A DNA stretch of 64,000 bases from a virus (lineage: Duplodnaviria; Caudoviricetes). The stretch is from positions 1,134-65,133 of IMG/VR virus record IMGVR_UViG_3300017917_001798, one strand, 5' to 3'. Positions 798 to 32,144 of this stretch are shown in pieces. The notes beneath the pieces were generated by a model, which made no database searches, was not told where the DNA came from, and saw only the letters and a program-made list of their open reading frames with translations. The stretch's first letter is position 1, and the number at the start of each line of letters is the position of its first letter. A program made the translations under genes and the position numbers.

Positions 798-2522
798 ATG
801 GCAGAAAAGATTTTATCTCCTGGCGTATTCCAAAATGAATCTGACCAATCGTTAGTTCAAAGAGGTATACAAGGTACAGCGACAGCTATAGTTGGTCCTA
901 CAGTAATGGGTCAACCATTAGTTCCTACCTATGTTACTTCTTATAGTGAGTATGTATCACAATTCGGAGAAACATTTAAAAGTGGTAGCTACTACTACGA
1001 ATACTTTACGTCACAAGCGGCAAAAGAATTCTTCCAAAACGGAGGACAAACATTATTAGTAACAAGAATTATTAGTGGATCAGCTAATGTTAGTACTTAT
1101 GCTAGCGCTACTGTACCTGCTATAATGAACGCTACTTCAGCATCATTCCAACTTGAAACAATAGCTTGGGGTGATCAAATGAACAACACTTCTAGTATGG
1201 TTAGCGGAGCATTAGCAAGCGGTAGTGGAATGAATGTTCGTTGGGAAATTACAAGTGTAAATACAGGAAGTGGTACATTTAACTTAGCAATTCGTGCTGG
1301 TAATGACAATACTGCTCAACCTAATTATATTGAATCTTGGCCTAATTTATCATTAGATCCAGCTCAACCTAACTATATTGCTCGTGTAATTGGTGATCTT
1401 AAACCAGTTTACAGATTAGATACTGATAGTGTTCCGTATATTGAATATACTGGTTCTTACGCTAATGCTTCTCAATATGTACGTGTTAAATCCGTAACAA
1501 TTCCTCAAGTAGACTCAATCGACAACAACGGTGCTTATAAAGCAACACAATACAGTGGTAGCTTACCAGCTGTAGGAAGTGGATCATACGGTGGTTCATT
1601 TGCAGGTGGTGTTGCTGCTACAACAACTGTTCAATTTATGAACGAAAATATCACAACAACCAATATTCAAGGATTTGGTGTTGATGATTATAAAGCTGCT
1701 TTCACTTTATTAAAAAATAAAGACGAATATAAATTTAACGTATTATTAGCTCCTGGTGTTACATTAAATAATGGTGCCGTTTCATCTATGATTTCTACAT
1801 GTGAAGATAGAGGAGATGCTATTGCAGCAATAGATAATGATGTTTTTGGTAAGACAGTAACAACAGCAGCAGCTAATGCAGCTGGTCAATCAAGCAACTA
1901 CGCTGGAACATATTGGCCTTGGGTTCAATTATACAGTTCAGGTTTAGGTAAAGCTATTTGGGCTCCTGCTTCAACAGTAATAGGTGGTGTTTATGCATTC
2001 AACGATCAAGTAGCAGCAAGTTGGTTCGCTCCCGCTGGTTTAAATCGTGGTGGTGTTCCTTCAGTATTAAAAGCTGAACGTAAATTATCTCAAACAGATC
2101 GTGATACTTTATATAATGCAAACGTTAACCCATTAGCTACATTCCCTGGTGAAGGTGTTGTAGTATATGGTCAGAAAACATTACAGAAGAAAGCTACAGC
2201 ATTAGATAGAATTAATGTTCGTCGTTTATTAATAGCATTAAAAGACTATATCGGTCAAGTATCTAATAACTTAGTATTTGAACAAAATACAAACGTTACT
2301 CGTAATAGATTCTTAGCTCAAGTTAATCCATACTTAGAATCAGTAGTACAACGTCAAGGATTGTATGCTTTCAAAGTAGTAATGGATGAAACAAACAATA
2401 CAGCTGATGTGATCGATAGAAACCAATTAGTAGGTCAAATATATATTCAACCAACTAAAACTGCTGAATTTATTATATTAAACTATAACATATTACCAAC
2501 TGGTGCTACATTCCCTGCATAA
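798..2522 (+). CDS. Tail sheath protein (T4 gp18-like)
   Basis: N-terminal SPGV..E.D.S; C-terminal WFAPAGLNRG, GQKTLQ, DRINVRRL, VFEQN, PTKTAEFI motifs. Confidence 0.97.
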   Translation: MAEKILSPGVFQNESDQSLVQRGIQGTATAIVGPTVMGQPLVPTYVTSYSEYVSQFGETFKSGSYYYEYFTSQAAKEFFQNGGQTLLVTRIISGSANVSTYASATVPAIMNATSASFQLETIAWGDQMNNTSSMVSGALASGSGMNVRWEITSVNTGSGTFNLAIRAGNDNTAQPNYIESWPNLSLDPAQPNYIARVIGDLKPVYRLDTDSVPYIEYTGSYANASQYVRVKSVTIPQVDSIDNNGAYKATQYSGSLPAVGSGSYGGSFAGGVAATTTVQFMNENITTTNIQGFGVDDYKAAFTLLKNKDEYKFNVLLAPGVTLNNGAVSSMISTCEDRGDAIAAIDNDVFGKTVTTAAANAAGQSSNYAGTYWPWVQLYSSGLGKAIWAPASTVIGGVYAFNDQVAASWFAPAGLNRGGVPSVLKAERKLSQTDRDTLYNANVNPLATFPGEGVVVYGQKTLQKKATALDRINVRRLLIALKDYIGQVSNNLVFEQNTNVTRNRFLAQVNPYLESVVQRQGLYAFKVVMDETNNTADVIDRNQLVGQIYIQPTKTAEFIILNYNILPTGATFPA

Positions 2523-2572
2523 GGGGATGTGGTTCCTAATATTTATTAATAGCAATTAAAAATTAAAATAAA

Positions 2573-3058
2573 ATGGCAGTATTAGATGCAAATGAAATTA
2601 TGTTTACGGCTTTTGAACCAAAAGTTCAGAATCGTTTCATAATGTATATAGATGGTATCCCAGCATACCTAATCAAAAGTGCAACAGCACCTGGATTTGA
2701 AGCTGGAGAAATCATATTAGATCACATCAACGTTTACCGTAAAGTAAAAGGTAAAGTTAGATGGAATGACATGACTTTAGGATTATACGATCCTGTAACA
2801 CCAAGCGGTGCTCAAGCAGTAATGGAATGGGCTCGTTTAGCACACGAATCAGTAACAGGCCGTGATGGTTATTCTGATTTTTACAAGAAAGATTTAACAT
2901 TAGATATATTAGGTCCTGTAGGTGATGTAGTAGGTGAATGGATTGTTAAAGGAGCTTATGTAAAAACGGCTACTTTTGGAGATTATGATTGGGCAAGTGA
3001 TGCAGCTATTAACTTAAGTGTAACAATCGCTATGGATTATTGCGTCCTCAATTTTTAG
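2573..3058 (+). CDS. Tail tube protein (T4 gp19-like)
   Basis: FEPK..NRF, K.KGK..W, LYDP, YKKD motifs; directly follows sheath. Confidence 0.93.
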   Translation: MAVLDANEIMFTAFEPKVQNRFIMYIDGIPAYLIKSATAPGFEAGEIILDHINVYRKVKGKVRWNDMTLGLYDPVTPSGAQAVMEWARLAHESVTGRDGYSDFYKKDLTLDILGPVGDVVGEWIVKGAYVKTATFGDYDWASDAAINLSVTIAMDYCVLNF

Positions 3059-15328: not shown

Positions 15329-15574
15329 ATGAAAAAAACTAACGAGATAAAAAGAATGCAGCAATTAGCTAGTGTGACAAACGAAGGTATTGATCCTCTT
15401 TTTTCTCTAACTGATCAAGAAAAAACATATTTAAAAAACAGAACAGAAGCATTTATTAATACCGCTGTACTTAACTCAGATATAGTAGCTAATGATTTTG
15501 AATATATGTCCCCTGCTAAAGAGAAAGCAGCAATTCAGTTTATTGTAGATATTTTAAAAGCAAAAATATCCTAA
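15329..15574 (+). CDS. Hypothetical protein with E.KRMQQLA N-terminal motif (candidate head-internal protein)
   Basis: N-terminus shared with 37487 ORF; preceded by GTATTTAT. Confidence 0.75.
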   Translation: MKKTNEIKRMQQLASVTNEGIDPLFSLTDQEKTYLKNRTEAFINTAVLNSDIVANDFEYMSPAKEKAAIQFIVDILKAKIS

Positions 15575-26017: not shown

Positions 26018-26803
26018 ATGATAGTTTCGCACGAGTTACCTTTATCGTTAATGCATTATGGATATGAGTTTAACGATTATGATTATTGTTTACCCCATCT
26101 ACTTGATAAGTATGATCAATACAGAATATACTTTCAAAAGGCACGTTTAAATAAACGTTTCATTATAATGGATAATGGGTTATTTGAAGGTGTAACACAC
26201 ACAACGGAAGATTTATTAGATAAAATTAATCTAATACGTCCCAATGTATTTATTGTTCCTGACGCTTGGGATGATGCTACAACAACATTAGTAAATGCTA
26301 AAAGTTGGATGATAAACTACAAACAAACACTACCAGAAGAAACAAATCTTATGGCTGTATGTCAGGGAGAATCATTAGGTGAATTAATAACGACGTACCA
26401 AACGTTAGTTGATTTAGGTTATGATCATATTGCCTTTAATCATTCTAGTTGTGCTTACATGGAAATGTATCCCGGCTTAGACCCATTAAAACGCCAAATG
26501 TATGGAAGAATGGAGTTTATACGTAAATTAGTACAAACAGACACTATTAGAAAAGATGTATACCATCATCTATTGGGATGTTCATTGCCTCAGGAGTTTA
26601 TGTCGTATAGTGATTTTCCATTTATTGAATCTGTAGATACATCTAATCCAATTCTAGTTGGAGCCGAAGGACACCGTTATACTGATAGTGGAATAAATTG
26701 GAAGCCAAAGGAAAAGCTTGAGCATTATTTTGAAAAAGATTTGAGCGGGCAGATAGAAGATATTATCTTTAATGTAAACAAATTTAAACAATATATAAAA
26801 TAG
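26018..26803 (+). CDS. TGT-fold (DpdA-like) 7-deazaguanine transglycosylase candidate
   Basis: MDNGLFE, VPD, V.QG, HLLG, SVDTS motifs echo the TGT barrel; located between queD and queC. Confidence 0.6.
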   Translation: MIVSHELPLSLMHYGYEFNDYDYCLPHLLDKYDQYRIYFQKARLNKRFIIMDNGLFEGVTHTTEDLLDKINLIRPNVFIVPDAWDDATTTLVNAKSWMINYKQTLPEETNLMAVCQGESLGELITTYQTLVDLGYDHIAFNHSSCAYMEMYPGLDPLKRQMYGRMEFIRKLVQTDTIRKDVYHHLLGCSLPQEFMSYSDFPFIESVDTSNPILVGAEGHRYTDSGINWKPKEKLEHYFEKDLSGQIEDIIFNVNKFKQYIK

Positions 26804-26808
26804 AAGTT

Positions 26809-27066
26809 ATGATTTCATTGTACGATTATTTAGGAAAAGCAGCCGGTAATGATTTAGGTAAACAAGTATCGGATTACGCTAAAATTAGAAAAGCTAAGTT
26901 TGGAACTAGAAAGGTATCTAACCCAAAATATAGTGGGATAGTCCACATATATGAAAGTGCATTCTTAGATGAATTCTTCGCTGTGCAAAAGGTATTTAGT
27001 TCTCCTGATTATACTGAAGTAAATACTGTTTTAGAGCAAGATAGTTTAAAAGAAACCCGGTTATAA
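26809..27066 (+). CDS. Hypothetical protein
   Basis: SLYDYLG.AAG..LG..V...Y.G.V..Y..FL motif. Confidence 0.75.
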   Translation: MISLYDYLGKAAGNDLGKQVSDYAKIRKAKFGTRKVSNPKYSGIVHIYESAFLDEFFAVQKVFSSPDYTEVNTVLEQDSLKETRL

Positions 27067-27117
27067 AGCTAATCGGTATACAAAATAATACGCTTTATAA
27101 ATTTAATTGTTTTAAAA

Positions 27118-27996
27118 ATGAAAAAACAAGCAGTACTAAGTCTATCTGGTGGGATGGATTCTAGTTCATTACTACTCCACCTATTAGCTAATGGTTATGA
27201 AGTAACAGCTCTATCATTTGATTACGGTCAAAAACATAGAGTAGAATTAGAACGTGCTACTGAATTAGTTAAATACATTAACGACAATCCTATGAGAGTA
27301 ACTCATACCGATCATGTTGTTGGTGGTTTTGATGAAGCATATTCTATAATAACACATCAAATCATTAAATTAGATGGTTTATCTCAATTGCTTAACTCAG
27401 CATTAGTAACAGGTGGAAACGATGTCCCTGAAGGTCACTACGAGCAGGACAACATGAAAGAAACAGTAGTACCTAACCGTAATAAGATATTCAGTTCAAT
27501 CATACAAGCAGTAGCATTGTCACTTGCTACTAAAGGTGAAAAACAAGAATGCGCTATTGCAATGGGAATCCATGCTGGTGATCATCAGATTTATCCAGAT
27601 TGCCGTCAAGAATTTAGAGATGCAGATATGGAAGCCTTTAAAATTGGTAACTGGGATTCTGAATTAGTAACAGTATACACTCCGTATCTTGAAGGTAATA
27701 AATTTACTATATTGCAAGATGGATTAGAATGTTGTGAAAAATTAGGGTTAGATTTTGATGAAGTGTATAAGCGTACTAACACAAGTTATAAGCCTATTAA
27801 ACATTACTATCGCCCAGAAACTAATGCTTTCAGATGGTATTCCGACTATAAATCAGCAGCATCAGTAGAGCGTATTGAAGCATTTATTAAATTAGAACGC
27901 CCTGATCCTGTAGCTTATGCTAACGAAACAGGACCAGTAACATGGGAAACAGCTAAAGCACACGTAGAACAAGTATTAGCTGAATACAACAAGTAA
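27118..27996 (+). CDS. queC: 7-cyano-7-deazaguanine synthase
   Basis: SGGMDS, FDYGQKH..E, VPNRN, YPDCR.EF. Confidence 0.95.
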   Translation: MKKQAVLSLSGGMDSSSLLLHLLANGYEVTALSFDYGQKHRVELERATELVKYINDNPMRVTHTDHVVGGFDEAYSIITHQIIKLDGLSQLLNSALVTGGNDVPEGHYEQDNMKETVVPNRNKIFSSIIQAVALSLATKGEKQECAIAMGIHAGDHQIYPDCRQEFRDADMEAFKIGNWDSELVTVYTPYLEGNKFTILQDGLECCEKLGLDFDEVYKRTNTSYKPIKHYYRPETNAFRWYSDYKSAASVERIEAFIKLERPDPVAYANETGPVTWETAKAHVEQVLAEYNK

Positions 27997-28015
27997 TTAA
28001 AACCCAAATATAGTT

Positions 28016-28231
28016 ATGTCAAACAGACTAAACAAAACAGCAAAATTAGCATTTTACACAGCACGTAGTCGTAAAGGCGATACAGCTCGTTTAGCAGAAA
28101 ACACAGGTTACACAACTCGTTTTGTGAACTATGTAAAATCTGGTGAAAGAAGTGTTAATGACACTTTAGCAAACGCCATGTATAACTTAACTCGTAGACG
28201 TGTTAAGAACAGTGAACTGTCAAATGCCTAA
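28016..28231 (+). CDS. Small basic, HTH-like putative DNA-binding protein
   Basis: GD..RLAE.TGYT..FV.YV..GER; Arg/Lys-rich. Confidence 0.6.
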   Translation: MSNRLNKTAKLAFYTARSRKGDTARLAENTGYTTRFVNYVKSGERSVNDTLANAMYNLTRRRVKNSELSNA

Positions 28232-28242
28232 TTAAACACCCC

Positions 28243-28275
28243 AAGATCTCCTATCTACGGATGGGAGATCTTTTC
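28243..28275 (+). terminator. Intrinsic terminator
   Basis: AAGATCTCCTATC-TACG-GATGGGAGATCTT followed by Ts. Confidence 0.85.
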
Positions 28276-28288
28276 TAAATTTTAAGTT

Positions 28289-28423
28289 ATGAATGAATTA
28301 CTACATACAATAGAACATATTTTAGGATTTTGTGGGGAAAGACATATTAGTCTTATAACAGCAATAACTGAATGGCCAAATTTAGGTTATATATTCAACT
28401 ATATTAAATCATTATTCAAATAA
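28289..28423 (+). CDS. Small hypothetical protein (44 aa)
   Basis: MNELLHTIEHILGFCGERH...LFK*; fills intergenic gap. Confidence 0.55.
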   Translation: MNELLHTIEHILGFCGERHISLITAITEWPNLGYIFNYIKSLFK

Positions 28424-28427
28424 AAAC

Positions 28428-28631
28428 ATGGAGGAAACTATGAAGTGTATCAAAAACAAAAAAACAGGTAATATTATTCGAGTAGACAATGAACAAGCGA
28501 ACCAAATGGTTGGGTCATCTTGGGAATATGTATCTAAATCTGAGTGGAAATCATCAGTACGACCTAAAGTTGTAGAAGAGCAAACAACTGAACCTGCTGT
28601 AGATAATGCAGTTAAAAAACATAAAAAGTAA
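28428..28631 (+). CDS. Hypothetical protein
   Basis: MKCIK...IIRV...A...V...WEYVSKSEWK. Confidence 0.7.
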   Translation: MEETMKCIKNKKTGNIIRVDNEQANQMVGSSWEYVSKSEWKSSVRPKVVEEQTTEPAVDNAVKKHKK

Positions 28632-28634
28632 AGT

Positions 28635-28700
28635 ATGAGTAAAATAGACCCAAATAAACTACTTATATCCAGTGACTTCTACTCTGTTCAAGGTAAATAA
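28635..28700 (+). pseudogene. queE: Orphan 5' fragment of queE (21 codons)
   Basis: Encodes MSKIDPNKLLISSDFYSVQGK*, versus MSKIDPNKLLISSDFFSVQGE at 30214. Confidence 0.9.
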
Positions 28701-28707
28701 CATAATA

Positions 28708-28782
28708 AACCGAGTGGTGTAAAAGTAGCACAGCATCCGACAGGGATGGAGGTCGACAACGATTCAAGTTCAGCCTCGGTTT
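28708..28782 (+). ncRNA. Degenerate tRNA-like element
   Basis: Acceptor-like stem AACCGAG/CTCGGTT, TG, D-arm GTGT/GCAC, stem CATCC/GGATG; non-canonical anticodon loop and T-arm. Confidence 0.45.
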
Positions 28783-28797
28783 CAAAACAAACAACAT

Positions 28798-29073
28798 ATG
28801 TTCGATAAAAAATACGACTTAAACGGACCTGAATTTATTAAACCTGATAAAAGCTGGGAAGGTATTATTAAATTAGGTGAAATAGATGGTGTTAATGTAT
28901 TTTACGACCAATACCACCCAGACCAGACTCTTACAGTTGAATTAAATAAAGATAAGACGGAGATGATTTATATAATTGGACCCTACGATGATATTTCAAT
29001 ATATGAAGGTATTAGAAAAAACATCATTGTGTCTGAGAAATCAACTAATATGATTAAAAAAGTAAGTATATGA
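28798..29073 (+). CDS. Hypothetical protein
   Basis: 91-aa ORF in ORF track. Confidence 0.65.
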   Translation: MFDKKYDLNGPEFIKPDKSWEGIIKLGEIDGVNVFYDQYHPDQTLTVELNKDKTEMIYIIGPYDDISIYEGIRKNIIVSEKSTNMIKKVSI

Positions 29074-29297
29074 CATACGGAGAAGCAATACAAAAATCAT
29101 TAACTGTAAAATGGAAAGTTGATACTTGTGACCAAGGTGAAGAATGTTGGTGTAGGGTAATTAGATGTGAAGAGCCTTTAATGTATAAAGAAAGAGAAGA
29201 CTCTGATGAAGAAGAATATTGGCCTGTTAGAGCAGGAGAAGTAGGTAAAGATACAGTTGAACATATTGTTAAAATACATAACAATACGGTCCAATAA
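29070..29297 (+). CDS. Hypothetical protein (C..G..CWC)
   Basis: 75-aa ORF coupled to previous one. Confidence 0.7.
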   Translation: MTYGEAIQKSLTVKWKVDTCDQGEECWCRVIRCEEPLMYKEREDSDEEEYWPVRAGEVGKDTVEHIVKIHNNTVQ

Positions 29298-29356
29298 GGA
29301 GTAACTTCTGTTGAATTAATCGAATAGAAATCACAATCTGTCAATATTTATTATAA

Positions 29357-30226
29357 ATGACAGATATGAATAACATACATTATGTTTATAAGATTACTAA
29401 TCTAAAAAACAGTAAAATTTACATAGGAGTAAGAACACATCCTAATCCTGAACAAGATACCTACATGAGCAGTAGCAACATTATAGCAAAGTTAATTGAG
29501 ATTGAAGGTGTCAAAAACTTTAAAAAAGAAGTACTACACGTCTATTCTACGCGACAAGAGGCTGAGCAAAAAGAAAAAGAGTATCTAACTGAAGAGTTCT
29601 GTAATGATCCTAATACATATAATATAAATAGTAACTCAAGTTTACAGGGTGATGTTCATGGATTTAGAAAAGATTTATGGTACGACTATTATGACACTAT
29701 TAGAGAAAGGTATCAAAATGGGGAACCGGCTAAAGAGTTGGGCAAGTACTATAGATGTGACACAGGTACTATTAGGAAGATAGTAGAGGATATAAAGCGA
29801 ACTAGATCTGAGACACAGAAATTAAGATATGAAAAATATACCACATCAGGTGCTCGTGATTTTGAATTTGATGAAAAGTATTTAAGTGAAGTACTCAAGC
29901 TCTACTGTGAAGATAAATGGAGTGTAAATAGAATAGCTAAGTACTTTAACAAAAGTACAGCATTTATACACACAAGACTAAATGAAAATAAAATATCAAT
30001 TAGACCTCGTAAAGAAAACAATGAAAAGGCCATTAGAAAACTTAGACCAGAAGTTTGGAAAGACGAGGCTAAAATAGTATCTTTATATCAACAAGGTTAT
30101 ACAATATCCGATCTAATTAAGAAGTATAAATGTAACGGAGGATTGATTAGGCAGGTACTAGTAAAACACAATATTAAAATACGTAATAAAACAGAAAATA
30201 AACTTTTAAAATTATGTCAAAAATAG
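29357..30226 (+). CDS. GIY-YIG (Seg-like) homing endonuclease with HTH repeats
   Basis: YVYKITN..N.KIYIG, Y.SS, F.KE.L, YN; C-terminal repeated helix-turn-helix units; overlaps queE start. Confidence 0.9.
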   Translation: MTDMNNIHYVYKITNLKNSKIYIGVRTHPNPEQDTYMSSSNIIAKLIEIEGVKNFKKEVLHVYSTRQEAEQKEKEYLTEEFCNDPNTYNINSNSSLQGDVHGFRKDLWYDYYDTIRERYQNGEPAKELGKYYRCDTGTIRKIVEDIKRTRSETQKLRYEKYTTSGARDFEFDEKYLSEVLKLYCEDKWSVNRIAKYFNKSTAFIHTRLNENKISIRPRKENNEKAIRKLRPEVWKDEAKIVSLYQQGYTISDLIKKYKCNGGLIRQVLVKHNIKIRNKTENKLLKLCQK

Positions 30227-31050
30227 ATCCGAACAAGTTACTCATAAGCTCAGATTTTTTTAGCGTGCAGGGAGAAGGAATTTCATCAGGAGTGCCCTCT
30301 TACTTTGTTCGCCTTGGTATCTGTAATCTCACCTGCGGTATGTCTCGCAAGTTTGCTAATCAACTAGCTAAAGAACAAAAATTAGAAGACGGAGAAATAT
30401 TTGTAGGTGATCTTCATGCTGAAGGTAAAGCAACCTGGACTTGTGATTCTACTTCACAGTGGTTATGGAGAGGTGAAGATAAAGAATTTCAATATCTGAT
30501 TGATAGGTGGAAAGAACAAGGTATCTACGATGATATCTTAAATGGTGTTATTCACATTATTTGGACTGGTGGTGAACCAACAATTAAAGGTCATCAAGAA
30601 GCTATTGTTAATTTCACTAATTATTGGTTGTCAAGACATTTAGATGAAACTGTTAATCCGTATTATGAAATTGAAACAAATGGTACAGTAGTGATTGATC
30701 AACCACTATTTAAAATGATTGACCAAATAAACTGCTCACCCAAGCTGTCTAATTCAGGTATGACTGAGAAACAACGTATTAATCCAGAAGCTATTAAGCG
30801 TATTATGGAACATAAAAATTATCAATTTAAATTCGTTATATCAAATGAAGAAGATGTACAGGAATTATTTCGCGATTTTGTCGTACCATTTAGCATACCT
30901 CTTAAAAATGTAGTTTGTATGCCTGGTTTAGATGATGCTGATGATTTTGAAGAGCGTACTAGATTCTGTCTTGAAATGGCTAAGAAATATCGCTTCCGCG
31001 GTCTTACACGTTTGCATATTGCAGCGTGGAATAAAACATTAAACGTATAA
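30214..31050 (+). CDS. queE: 7-carboxy-7-deazaguanine synthase (radical SAM)
   Basis: F.SVQGEG...G.P..FVRL..CNL.C...CD, TGGEP, IETNG, SPKL, RLH. Confidence 0.95.
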   Translation: MSKIDPNKLLISSDFFSVQGEGISSGVPSYFVRLGICNLTCGMSRKFANQLAKEQKLEDGEIFVGDLHAEGKATWTCDSTSQWLWRGEDKEFQYLIDRWKEQGIYDDILNGVIHIIWTGGEPTIKGHQEAIVNFTNYWLSRHLDETVNPYYEIETNGTVVIDQPLFKMIDQINCSPKLSNSGMTEKQRINPEAIKRIMEHKNYQFKFVISNEEDVQELFRDFVVPFSIPLKNVVCMPGLDDADDFEERTRFCLEMAKKYRFRGLTRLHIAAWNKTLNV

Positions 31051-31052
31051 TT

Positions 31053-31253
31053 ATGGAAGAATTATTTAAAACATATGAAGAATATAAACAATATGTTAAC
31101 GAAGAATGGGAACAAGGGTATATAAATGAACTATATGAAAGTGGATTAATAGTTGAAGTAAAGGAATCATTTGATTATGAATGTGAGTCTAAACAAATAA
31201 ACTATCGTAAACTAACAGAAGAAGAATTTAAAATATTTATGTCAAATAATTAA
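31053..31253 (+). CDS. Hypothetical acidic protein
   Basis: 66-aa ORF starting in junction repeat 1. Confidence 0.6.
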   Translation: MEELFKTYEEYKQYVNEEWEQGYINELYESGLIVEVKESFDYECESKQINYRKLTEEEFKIFMSNN

Positions 31254-31256
31254 AAT

Positions 31257-31694
31257 ATGATAAAATTAAGTGACATTTTAGAAAATTTAAACCTTAAAGC
31301 TAGTAGGGTTTACCCTGAAGTAGAATTAGTTCCCTACGATGATAGTTTTCGTAAACTTATGGGAGATGGATTTGTTATAATAGATAAAAAATCATCCAAT
31401 AAGATAGGTGCTGTATCTATTAGAAACATAGATGGGATAAATAATGTTGTGTATTCTATTCATATACATGACGAATTTAGAGGAAAATCATTTGCTGTCT
31501 CTACATATGTTGAATTAGCTAAAATTTTAGGTAGTGTATGCTCAGGTGAATTTCGAGAAAATGGTACACCAACTTCATTTGTTAGTAATGAAGCCAACAA
31601 TGTTTGGAAACGTCTAAATGAGATTTTTAAAATTGAAAAAATACCAATACAAGGAGACAAATTCAGATATTGTCTTAAAAAAGAAAATATATAG
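31257..31694 (+). CDS. GNAT-like protein with MIKLSDILE N-terminus
   Basis: I.IHDEFRGKSFA...Y acetyl-CoA-binding-like motif, S.EA..VW..L; late motif at 31233. Confidence 0.65.
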   Translation: MIKLSDILENLNLKASRVYPEVELVPYDDSFRKLMGDGFVIIDKKSSNKIGAVSIRNIDGINNVVYSIHIHDEFRGKSFAVSTYVELAKILGSVCSGEFRENGTPTSFVSNEANNVWKRLNEIFKIEKIPIQGDKFRYCLKKENI

Positions 31695-31718
31695 AGTAAA
31701 AACATTAAACGTATAATT

Positions 31719-31901
31719 ATGGCATTTGGAATTAATTTTACAGAAGAAGAAGCAGAAGAAGATAGATTTCATTATGAAGTTCATAAAAGAGTTACAGAAG
31801 AATGGGAAAAAGAAAAGAAACAGAGACTTAAACAAGACAATAAAATTAAATCTTTAGTAAAGTCTTTAGTTAAAAATCTAAATAAAACATTAAACGTATA
31901 A
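31719..31901 (+). CDS. Hypothetical protein ending in the QueE C-terminal hexapeptide
   Basis: Ends NKTLNV*, as QueE does. Confidence 0.55.
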   Translation: MAFGINFTEEEAEEDRFHYEVHKRVTEEWEKEKKQRLKQDNKIKSLVKSLVKNLNKTLNV

Positions 31902-31904
31902 ATT

Positions 31905-32144
31905 ATGGCAAAAGATCATTGTGTAATATGTGGTGTAGAAACACCGTATGATTACGAAACTCATATTGATATGAGAATAGGTTATATCGAAGGTGCTGGA
32001 CAACTATGTAAAACATGTTATGACGGAGATAGCAATAAACGTTATATTACTATATCTGAAAAACTAGTTGAAAAATATCCTAACGATCAAATACTGGGAG
32101 GCAAGGTAAGAGAATTATATTGGGAAAATAAAATAAATAAATAA
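31905..32144 (+). CDS. Small Zn-finger-like protein
   Basis: C..CG..T.Y....HID.R.GY.EG.GQLC..C; PND..LG..VR. Confidence 0.75.
   Translation: MAKDHCVICGVETPYDYETHIDMRIGYIEGAGQLCKTCYDGDSNKRYITISEKLVEKYPNDQILGGKVRELYWENKINK

Follow-up and report, generated by a model that had tools for sequence, protein, structure and literature searches.

In fungal mitochondria, elements known as mORFs form 'gene hybrids' (Allomyces macrogynus atp6; Glomus sp. atp6, atp9, cox2 and nad3). According to the open text of PMC3630166, an endonuclease open reading frame (ORF) of the LAGLIDADG or GIY-YIG type lies within a protein gene without an intron, and the gene end in use is a diverged copy that the element brings, next to which the native end persists. 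Nucleotide identity to relatives is 91–98% for the native end, as against 64–81% for the inserted copy, and the differences are largely synonymous (PMC3630166). These mORFs are the closest known parallel to the locus described here, in which a GIY-YIG homing endonuclease gene adjoins the gene queE of a tailed virus (Duplodnaviria; Caudoviricetes). The stretch analysed, hereafter the window, comprises 64,000 nucleotides (positions 1,134 to 65,133) of a 65-kb virus record, IMG/VR IMGVR_UViG_3300017917_001798, and its features between 28428 and 31050 discussed below lie on the given (+) strand. As described for mORFs (PMC3630166), an endonuclease ORF is found in a protein gene and a duplicated gene end, here the start at 30214, replaces the native one, of which an orphan remains at 28635. 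In mORFs it is the C-terminal end that is replaced (PMC3630166), whereas here it is the N-terminal start, so that the element must supply translation initiation. The locus differs further in its host, a bacterial virus (an archaeal one in the case of HCTV-1, see below) and not a mitochondrion; in the several unrelated nuclease families that occupy one slot; in the passenger ORFs and RNA element between the orphan and the nuclease gene; and in the nuclease ORF, which is separate in the window but in mORFs often shares the frame of the host gene.

Certain prophages and islands (for example e14 and phage 21 in icd) integrate in a gene end, restore the gene with their own, partly synonymous end and leave the old end as a pseudogene piece. 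They use integrases and att sites and replace the 3′ end, whereas the present locus contains no integrase and the nuclease is its only enzyme. In engineered 'cleave and rescue' (ClvR) drives, the rescue copy is recoded. Such drives pair a nuclease that destroys the wild-type allele with a cleavage-resistant copy of the target (PMC6442612). The queE element would resemble ClvR (PMC6442612) in coupling a nuclease with a target copy that escapes cleavage, but it is a natural, protein-guided element within the target locus, its rescue covers no more than the initial ~22 codons, and it would follow homing and not toxin–antidote dynamics. The free-standing Seg/Mob enzymes of T4-type phages are intergenic or split genes into two working pieces (mobE in Aeh1 nrdA, mobA in the T4 topoisomerase gene; PMC2988022). 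Compared with the open text of that source, the locus shares with Seg/Mob enzymes a GIY-YIG nuclease with a C-terminal DNA-binding part, a free-standing gene adjoining its target, the exchange of nuclease genes at one site, the overlap of some of them with neighbouring ORFs and, presumably, spread by double-strand-break repair with co-conversion of flanks. It differs in its duplicated and replaced gene start: none is described for Seg/Mob in the open text of PMC2988022, in which no word in 'duplicat' occurs. Likewise, no phage report of a gene start duplicated or replaced by a nuclease was found in open-access text, PMC2988022 and PMC3950731 included, a body of text that does not extend to supplements and subscription journals.

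Very probably, a mobile homing-endonuclease cassette lives in the 5′ end of queE, supplies the gene with a replacement start and strands the native start upstream. The intact queE (30214–31050) encodes a 278-residue 7-carboxy-7-deazaguanine synthase-like radical SAM protein (phrog_2076 QueE-like, E = 7e-39), forms a complete ORF that aligns end to end with 80 relatives, and begins with MSKIDPNKLLISSDFFSVQGEG. The orphan (28635–28700) comprises codons 1–20 of a native queE start followed by Lys and a stop codon, encoding MSKIDPNKLLISSDFYSVQGK-stop. The two starts are identical at 19 of 20 residues, the sole mismatch being Y16 in the orphan and F16 in the intact gene, and at 36 of 60 bases; 15 of the 19 shared residues are specified by a different codon, and all four Ser codons swap between the AGY and TCN families. 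When the 30 residues at either end of 78 ORFs are compared with the whole window by tblastn, the pair scores E = 1.3e-9, by virtue of which its likeness is not due to chance; just one other match, between a pair of small paralogous ORFs, is better than 0.001. The new start has a geometric mean relative codon frequency of 0.219, below all 3,127 twenty-codon windows of the long ORFs of the window, and the orphan one of 0.299, at about the 3rd percentile. An earlier note on this DNA had reported the orphan with its 19 shared residues, the 15 altered codons, the overlap of the intact start with the 3′ end of the GIY-YIG gene and the rarity of the codons used there; the letters and the codon counts bear it out on each, the nuclease ORF ending 13 bases inside queE.

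The nuclease gene (29357–30226) encodes a GIY-YIG homing endonuclease of 289 residues with an N-terminal nuclease domain and C-terminal helix-turn-helix (HTH) repeats. Its catalytic domain (residues 6–79) is matched by PF19835 SegE_GIY-YIG (28.8 bits, cut-off 25) and PF01541 (23.0 bits, cut-off 22.6), and the protein matches phrog_314 'homing endonuclease' (E = 3e-22). Residues Y9, Y11, Y22-I23-G24, R26, E79, E80 and N89 are invariant in 11 relatives of 50–98% identity, and we take the Tyr, Arg, Glu and Asn motif residues to have the catalytic roles assigned to them in work on I-TevI. The separate DNA-binding part is matched by HTH_58, HTH_7 and HTH_23 at residues 178–259 and by the tandem-HTH chain 2lvs_A (E = 4e-5) in a profile search of the PDB, which returned HTH chains only and nothing for the N-terminal domain; a PDB sequence search with the whole enzyme gave no match. 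The ORF is separate from the queE frame and does not form an in-frame fusion with it. A search of Rfam at E up to 1 over window positions 27900–31200 found no match, including no group I intron, and queE is a complete ORF without need of splicing, which together rule out a group I intron or an intein.

A scan of viral contigs yielded 208 stretches that encode queE relatives, the best 80 of which were compared. The nuclease-free set among them consists of 75 loci, and 60 distinct nuclease-free starts served for comparison; one further locus, L064, was first counted as nuclease-free (giving 76) and later removed. The association of a second start with a nuclease is strict. A relative of the endonuclease is present in four of the 80 loci (L029, L030, L037 and L080), and a second queE start in five, namely these four and L064, where a DUF559 (Vsr-like) nuclease lies between the starts. 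None of the 75 nuclease-free loci has a second start, each having a single start preceded by small, very varied genes. The orphan is native in character: its mean identity to the 60 distinct nuclease-free starts is 47.4/60, close to the median, with 31 of the 60 ranking below it. The new start is foreign, with a mean identity of 39.8/60 to the same set, and all four nuclease-linked new starts (window, L029, L037 and L080) fall at 39.3–41.1/60, below every native sequence. As in mORFs, the native remnant is nearer to relatives than the inserted copy is. Tyr16 is retained in 75 of 75 nuclease-free loci and is replaced by Phe or Met in the window and in all five nuclease-bearing loci. The earlier note had expected relatives lacking the endonuclease to carry orphan-type starts, and this is what was found: of the initial 76 loci, 73 resemble the orphan more closely, two (L025 and L062) the new copy, and one (L064) is tied; without L064, the figure is 73 of 75. 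Its broader reading, an endonuclease element in queE that supplies a re-spelled 5′ end in place of the old one and dispenses with splicing, is supported by these relatives, by the Y16 pattern and by the empty-site contigs described below. L025 and L062 are the only two natives slightly nearer the new copy. Together with L004 and L040, they are nuclease-free starts with some new-type codons (TCA at codon 2; AAG and CTC in L025), which may be footprints of a lost cassette.

The limits of the shared cassette can be read from comparison with other nuclease-bearing loci. Identity of the window's queE to theirs is high only in codons 1–20 (0.93 for L029/L030, 0.82 for L037 and 0.78 for L080, against 0.57–0.75 for nuclease-free relatives) and is then that of any relative. 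The codons common to all four nuclease-linked alleles, which define the re-spelled replacement start (codons 1–22, 30214–30279), end at codon 22, after which the alleles diverge; the nuclease-linked tract ends at codon 22–30. The window and L029, whose enzymes are 98% identical, share DNA identities of 0.87–1.00 per 60-base step from ~29345 to 30300, with 0.77 in the left-edge step; outside the cassette, identity is ~0.8 downstream of 30300 and the upstream sequences are unrelated. The cassette (29300–30308) is also covered at ≥90% in three other metagenomes (X2, X3 and X6, of which X3 covers part; uncovered stretches in these three were not counted as evidence). In X2 and X6 the match to the window begins at 29300, with left flanks unlike those of the window, and in X6 it ends at 30308. 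Because the L029 identity profile and the limits of the X2 and X6 contigs agree, the cassette is ~1 kb in size and consists of a 12-base scar, a leader, the nuclease gene and ~22–30 codons of replacement queE.

Empty sites were found when the Logan contigs of metagenome runs X1 and X6 were compared with the window at ≥90% likeness. In an X1 contig, the orphan match extends up to 28663 and the intact-gene match starts at 30271; the 28 intervening letters read as codons 10–19 in frame, with Tyr at position 16. In an X6 contig, the match runs through 28694 and resumes at 30289, the 15 intervening letters corresponding to codons 21–25. Both contigs carry an uninterrupted queE with an orphan-like start and a remainder like the window's gene. 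With the nuclease in four of the 80 queE loci and empty sites in X1 and X6, the site displays presence/absence polymorphism. In X1 a single cassette-covering contig has a depth of 12.7. Contigs matching the orphan stretch or downstream queE have summed depths in the hundreds or thousands; relatives are pooled in these totals, which do not represent frequencies.

The enzyme has close relatives in 15 viral loci as well as in additional metagenome contigs. In every locus that extends far enough, the next gene after the nuclease is queE, which is of a different type in L091, L092 and L106. Orphans accompany this enzyme lineage in L029/L030, L037, L080, L084, L085, L096, L097, L098, L100 and L103, and a junction between codon 16/17 and the endonuclease leader (29312–29356 in the window; aligned by eye over 10 loci) is conserved across it. 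In L080, L085, L096 and L100 the orphan reads through codon 16 directly into this leader; L084 has the same type of junction plus an internal deletion, the junction lies two bases later in L098 and L103, and L102 retains a scar only, spanning codons 13–17. In the window, L029/L030, L037, L097 and L101, a stretch of codons 13–16 with its first base changed lies directly 5′ of the leader; small ORFs lie 5′ of it and a longer orphan before them, save in L101, whose contig ends before any orphan. This stretch (29300–29311) constitutes a second remnant of the native queE start and the left edge of the shared cassette. A remnant of the same type stands just 5′ of the nuclease leader in L029, L037, L097, L101 and L137, the last carrying a different nuclease (see below), and it is continuous with the orphan in the four simple loci. 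The earlier note had noticed this 'GVTS' piece at ~29298 as a possible continuation of the old copy. The piece is real and conserved, but its assignment to codons 26–29 is ruled out by its continuity with the orphan in simple loci and by its running straight into the nuclease leader, which identify it as codons 13–16. Likewise, the cargo by which the old start was said to have been split does lie between its parts, but codons 13–16 occur twice, on both sides of it, and the cargo therefore did not simply split one old start.

In L097 (306–914), a 13-codon orphan is fused in frame to a 202-residue ORF without family match, and the nuclease downstream is 96% identical to that of the window; fusion of the orphan to a downstream ORF was seen only here and in HCTV-1. 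In the ORF lists of the distant GIY-YIG relatives L120–L135, genes other than queE adjoin the nuclease and no queE-type duplicate is present. Some of these relatives lie between two large ORFs (L122–L124, 734–4755; L120, 1736–4776), which by eye are possibly the front and back of one large phage gene, a candidate terminase large subunit.

Other nucleases occupy the same slot. L137, another 65-kb virus record (reverse strand, 1384–3025), carries before queE a second, unrelated GIY-YIG enzyme with a NUMOD3 motif; its orphan, RNA element and scar are the same as in the window and its 91-residue ORF is visibly similar, with a different new start. The enzyme of L137 is found again in L152 (~2190–3000) and L153 (~1306–2120), with a 12-codon orphan fused to the leader and again a different new start. 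These loci retain the scar and the first bases of the leader of the window-type enzyme, a pattern that suggests replacement of one nuclease gene by another within an existing cassette. In L064 (5208–6060) and L145 (1395–2250) the slot holds a DUF559 (Vsr-like) nuclease ORF, the orphan is present and the new start reads DFM, with Met for Tyr16. The most direct comparison comes from isolates. In halovirus HCTV-1 (L140, KC292029.1, 1845–3286), an ORF annotated as 'HNH protein' opens with 20 native queE codons. At 59 of 60 bases this orphan matches the corresponding start in HCTV-16 (L143, 1183–1971), which has no nuclease before its queE. The real queE start of HCTV-1 is re-spelled: it matches its own orphan and the HCTV-16 start at 42/60 each, carries N2K, Y15F and V17I and switches the codon family of two Ser residues, and the gene becomes identical again to that of HCTV-16 from codon 19. 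In window numbering, the orphans found with these other nucleases (L137, L152, L153, L064, L145 and HCTV-1) all end between codons 16 and 21. Directly 3′ of its queE, HCTV-16 has an HNH endonuclease gene of its own (1968–2582), different from that of HCTV-1, which overlaps the queE stop.

A mechanism for the spread of the cassette may be proposed. The enzyme would cut an uninterrupted queE near codons 16–21, in the DNA that encodes F-Y-S-V-Q-G-E-G, and the break would be repaired from a cassette-bearing genome present in a mixed infection. The incoming segment, from ~29300 to ~30280–30308, would comprise the 12-base codon 13–16 scar, the leader, the GIY-YIG gene and replacement codons 1 to ~22. 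The right-hand crossover would fall in queE just past the re-spelled tract, so that the replacement start joins the resident queE in frame and restores a whole gene without intron or intein, leaving the resident's first 20 codons as the orphan. On the left side, repair would use, or merely leave behind, the recipient's queE start; given how strongly the upstream neighbourhood varies, the orphan is an attractive candidate for the left homology. Neither the re-spelled start, with its Y16F change, nor the truncated orphan would be a substrate of the enzyme. The RNA element and small ORFs between orphan and cassette would be passengers gained in later events.

Several observations weigh against this account. 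Native starts differ from each other too, with a mean pairwise identity of ~47/60 (~20% difference), and the new start at ~40/60 is only moderately more diverged; it may simply be the usual start of some remote donor lineage, not one selected for immunity. Some nuclease-linked starts retain a native-like spelling of codons 14–20 (L085). No recognisable orphan is present in four or five nuclease-bearing lineages (L086, L087, L088/L089, L090 and L091/L092), and the orphan is therefore dispensable. The duplication of codons 13–16 on either side of the cargo is not accounted for by a single insertion. The matches on either side of the contig joints are short (21–30 letters), which is the main caveat on the empty sites. 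Finally, the identity of relatives to the orphan correlates only weakly with their identity to codons 21–45 of the intact gene (Spearman 0.31, p = 0.015), a correlation that vanishes further downstream. The orphan and the downstream gene were also considered as two halves of one native gene, an idea dropped in view of the weak correlation (rho 0.31–0.34 for codons 21–45, none beyond).

The alternative that survives best, although we regard it as unlikely, is ordinary intron-less homing of a free-standing intergenic endonuclease, in which the new start is simply the donor's own, co-converted with the nuclease, and the orphan an accident of one-sided illegitimate repair, with neither a homology-arm role nor selected re-spelling. 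The lineages without an orphan and the diversity of native starts just described would fit such a process, as would the variable upstream gene, which often leaves donor and recipient left flanks non-homologous and favours illegitimate joins, and the lineage-specific ends of the orphan (codon 16/17, 18, or 19 plus one base). Against it, the junction of codon 16/17 with the leader is kept across enzymes only 60–72% identical, in long and short subfamilies alike, and the orphans are intact, native-like and undecayed, that of L029 being one base off the native starts of L056 and L061. Moreover, every nuclease-linked start is more diverged from natives than any native is, and Tyr16 is replaced in nuclease-linked alleles only, and again in HCTV-1.

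It is far less probable that the orphan works as a small upstream ORF whose 21-residue leader peptide regulates the following genes. The orphan does retain its ATG and sits right after the stop of the upstream gene, and in L097 and HCTV-1 its start begins a longer ORF; however, its length and end vary between loci, from 12 to 20 codons, it is missing in several nuclease-bearing lineages, and its sequence follows that of native queE starts. Slightly less credible still is a duplicate made by chance recombination between two diverged phages, with the endonuclease as an unrelated neighbour. These phages are highly mosaic, but a second start is present in five of five nuclease-bearing and none of 75 nuclease-free loci, and four unrelated nuclease families show the layout, one of them in an archaeal virus. 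An assembly artefact, conceivable for a record derived from a metagenome, has a negligible probability given an independent Logan contig that covers window positions 28637–30360 with zero differences and the repetition of the layout in many independent assemblies and in the isolate genome of HCTV-1.

The cassette in the 5′ end of queE would add to introns and inteins a third way into coding DNA, by which a selfish nuclease gene replaces the start of its target with an escape copy. One design, four nuclease families and one ~16-base region suggest strong, repeated selection. We put forward a wider proposal more tentatively, as one about as apt to fail as to hold, if not somewhat more so: the F-Y-S-V-Q-G-E-G DNA of viral queE would be a shared homing hotspot, where four or more nuclease families unrelated to one another (two GIY-YIG types, DUF559/Vsr-like and HNH) have independently adopted a 'bring your own gene start' strategy in bacterial and archaeal viruses. 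The orphan would then be not debris but a left homology arm that frees the cassette from the hypervariable upstream region, the whole would act as a self-contained natural cleave-and-rescue drive, and the gap between orphan and nuclease would be a slot through which passenger genes and a structured RNA spread. The layout mirrors that of engineered cleave-and-rescue drives, of which the element would be a counterpart in nature. As for target recognition, the kinds of escape change seen (Tyr16 to Phe or Met, Ser codon-family switches) point to the bases read by the enzymes, and HCTV-1 and HCTV-16, cultured isolates on Haloarcula californiae, offer a tractable test system. Orphan starts, and nuclease ORFs that borrow them, are prone to mis-annotation, the 'HNH protein' of HCTV-1 with its 20 queE codons being an example. 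Since queE is needed for 7-deazaguanine modification of phage DNA, one may speculate that cutting a competitor's queE acts as a weapon in mixed infections.

The segment between the orphan and the nuclease gene begins with a 76-nucleotide, cloverleaf-shaped structured RNA candidate (28707–28782) directly after the orphan stop, with a predicted fold of −21.6 kcal/mol (z = −2.3). Over three homologues, two of its 22 pairs, in two helices, show compensatory A–U to U–A changes, a number matched by 69 of 500 shuffles and thus not significant. Copies lie in L037 (~2442–2521) and L137 (~1491–1571, minus strand), and no further copy was found in the window or in the other collected loci. The earlier note had called this a tRNA-like element, but a transfer RNA (tRNA) identity is ruled out: ARAGORN calls nine tRNAs in the window, none of them here, and there is no Rfam tRNA match. 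The loops of the predicted fold have 5 and 4 nucleotides, compared with 7 in tRNA. Two cargo ORFs without Pfam or PHROG match follow. The first (28798–29073, 91 residues) is present in L037 at 85% amino-acid identity and, by eye, at the same place in L137; the second (29070–29297, 75 residues) is represented by other small ORFs in relatives. A promoter scan returned 12 promoter-like sites against 9.9 expected, not above shuffles, and a scan for terminators found none.

The window belongs to a phage genome, with genes for a tail sheath, a family B polymerase (PolB), a helicase and a chaperonin as well as sugar genes. The intact queE lies in a QueD–QueC–QueE–GTP cyclohydrolase I cluster. Upstream of the orphan, a 67-residue neighbour gene (28428–28631) shows a weak match to DUF7302 (PF23976, 22.1 bits, below the cut-off of 24.9), and the gene 5′ of queE varies widely among the upstream ORFs of the 80 loci. 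A megablast of window positions 27000–32000 against phage records gave no match, and protein-level matches to named phages lie below 34% identity. Within the deazaguanine cluster, a 261-residue ORF (26018–26803) has no Pfam match and a strong match to PHROG 19058, of unknown function; its position suggests that it may be a DNA-modifying transglycosylase of the deazaguanine pathway. Elsewhere in the window, the ORFs at 15574, 17163 and 31257 (259, 152 and 145 residues) start nearly alike (MIKL-x-DIL), the first two having 10 identical residues in common as well as bases preceding the ATG, and the three may share a start module or form a small paralogue family.

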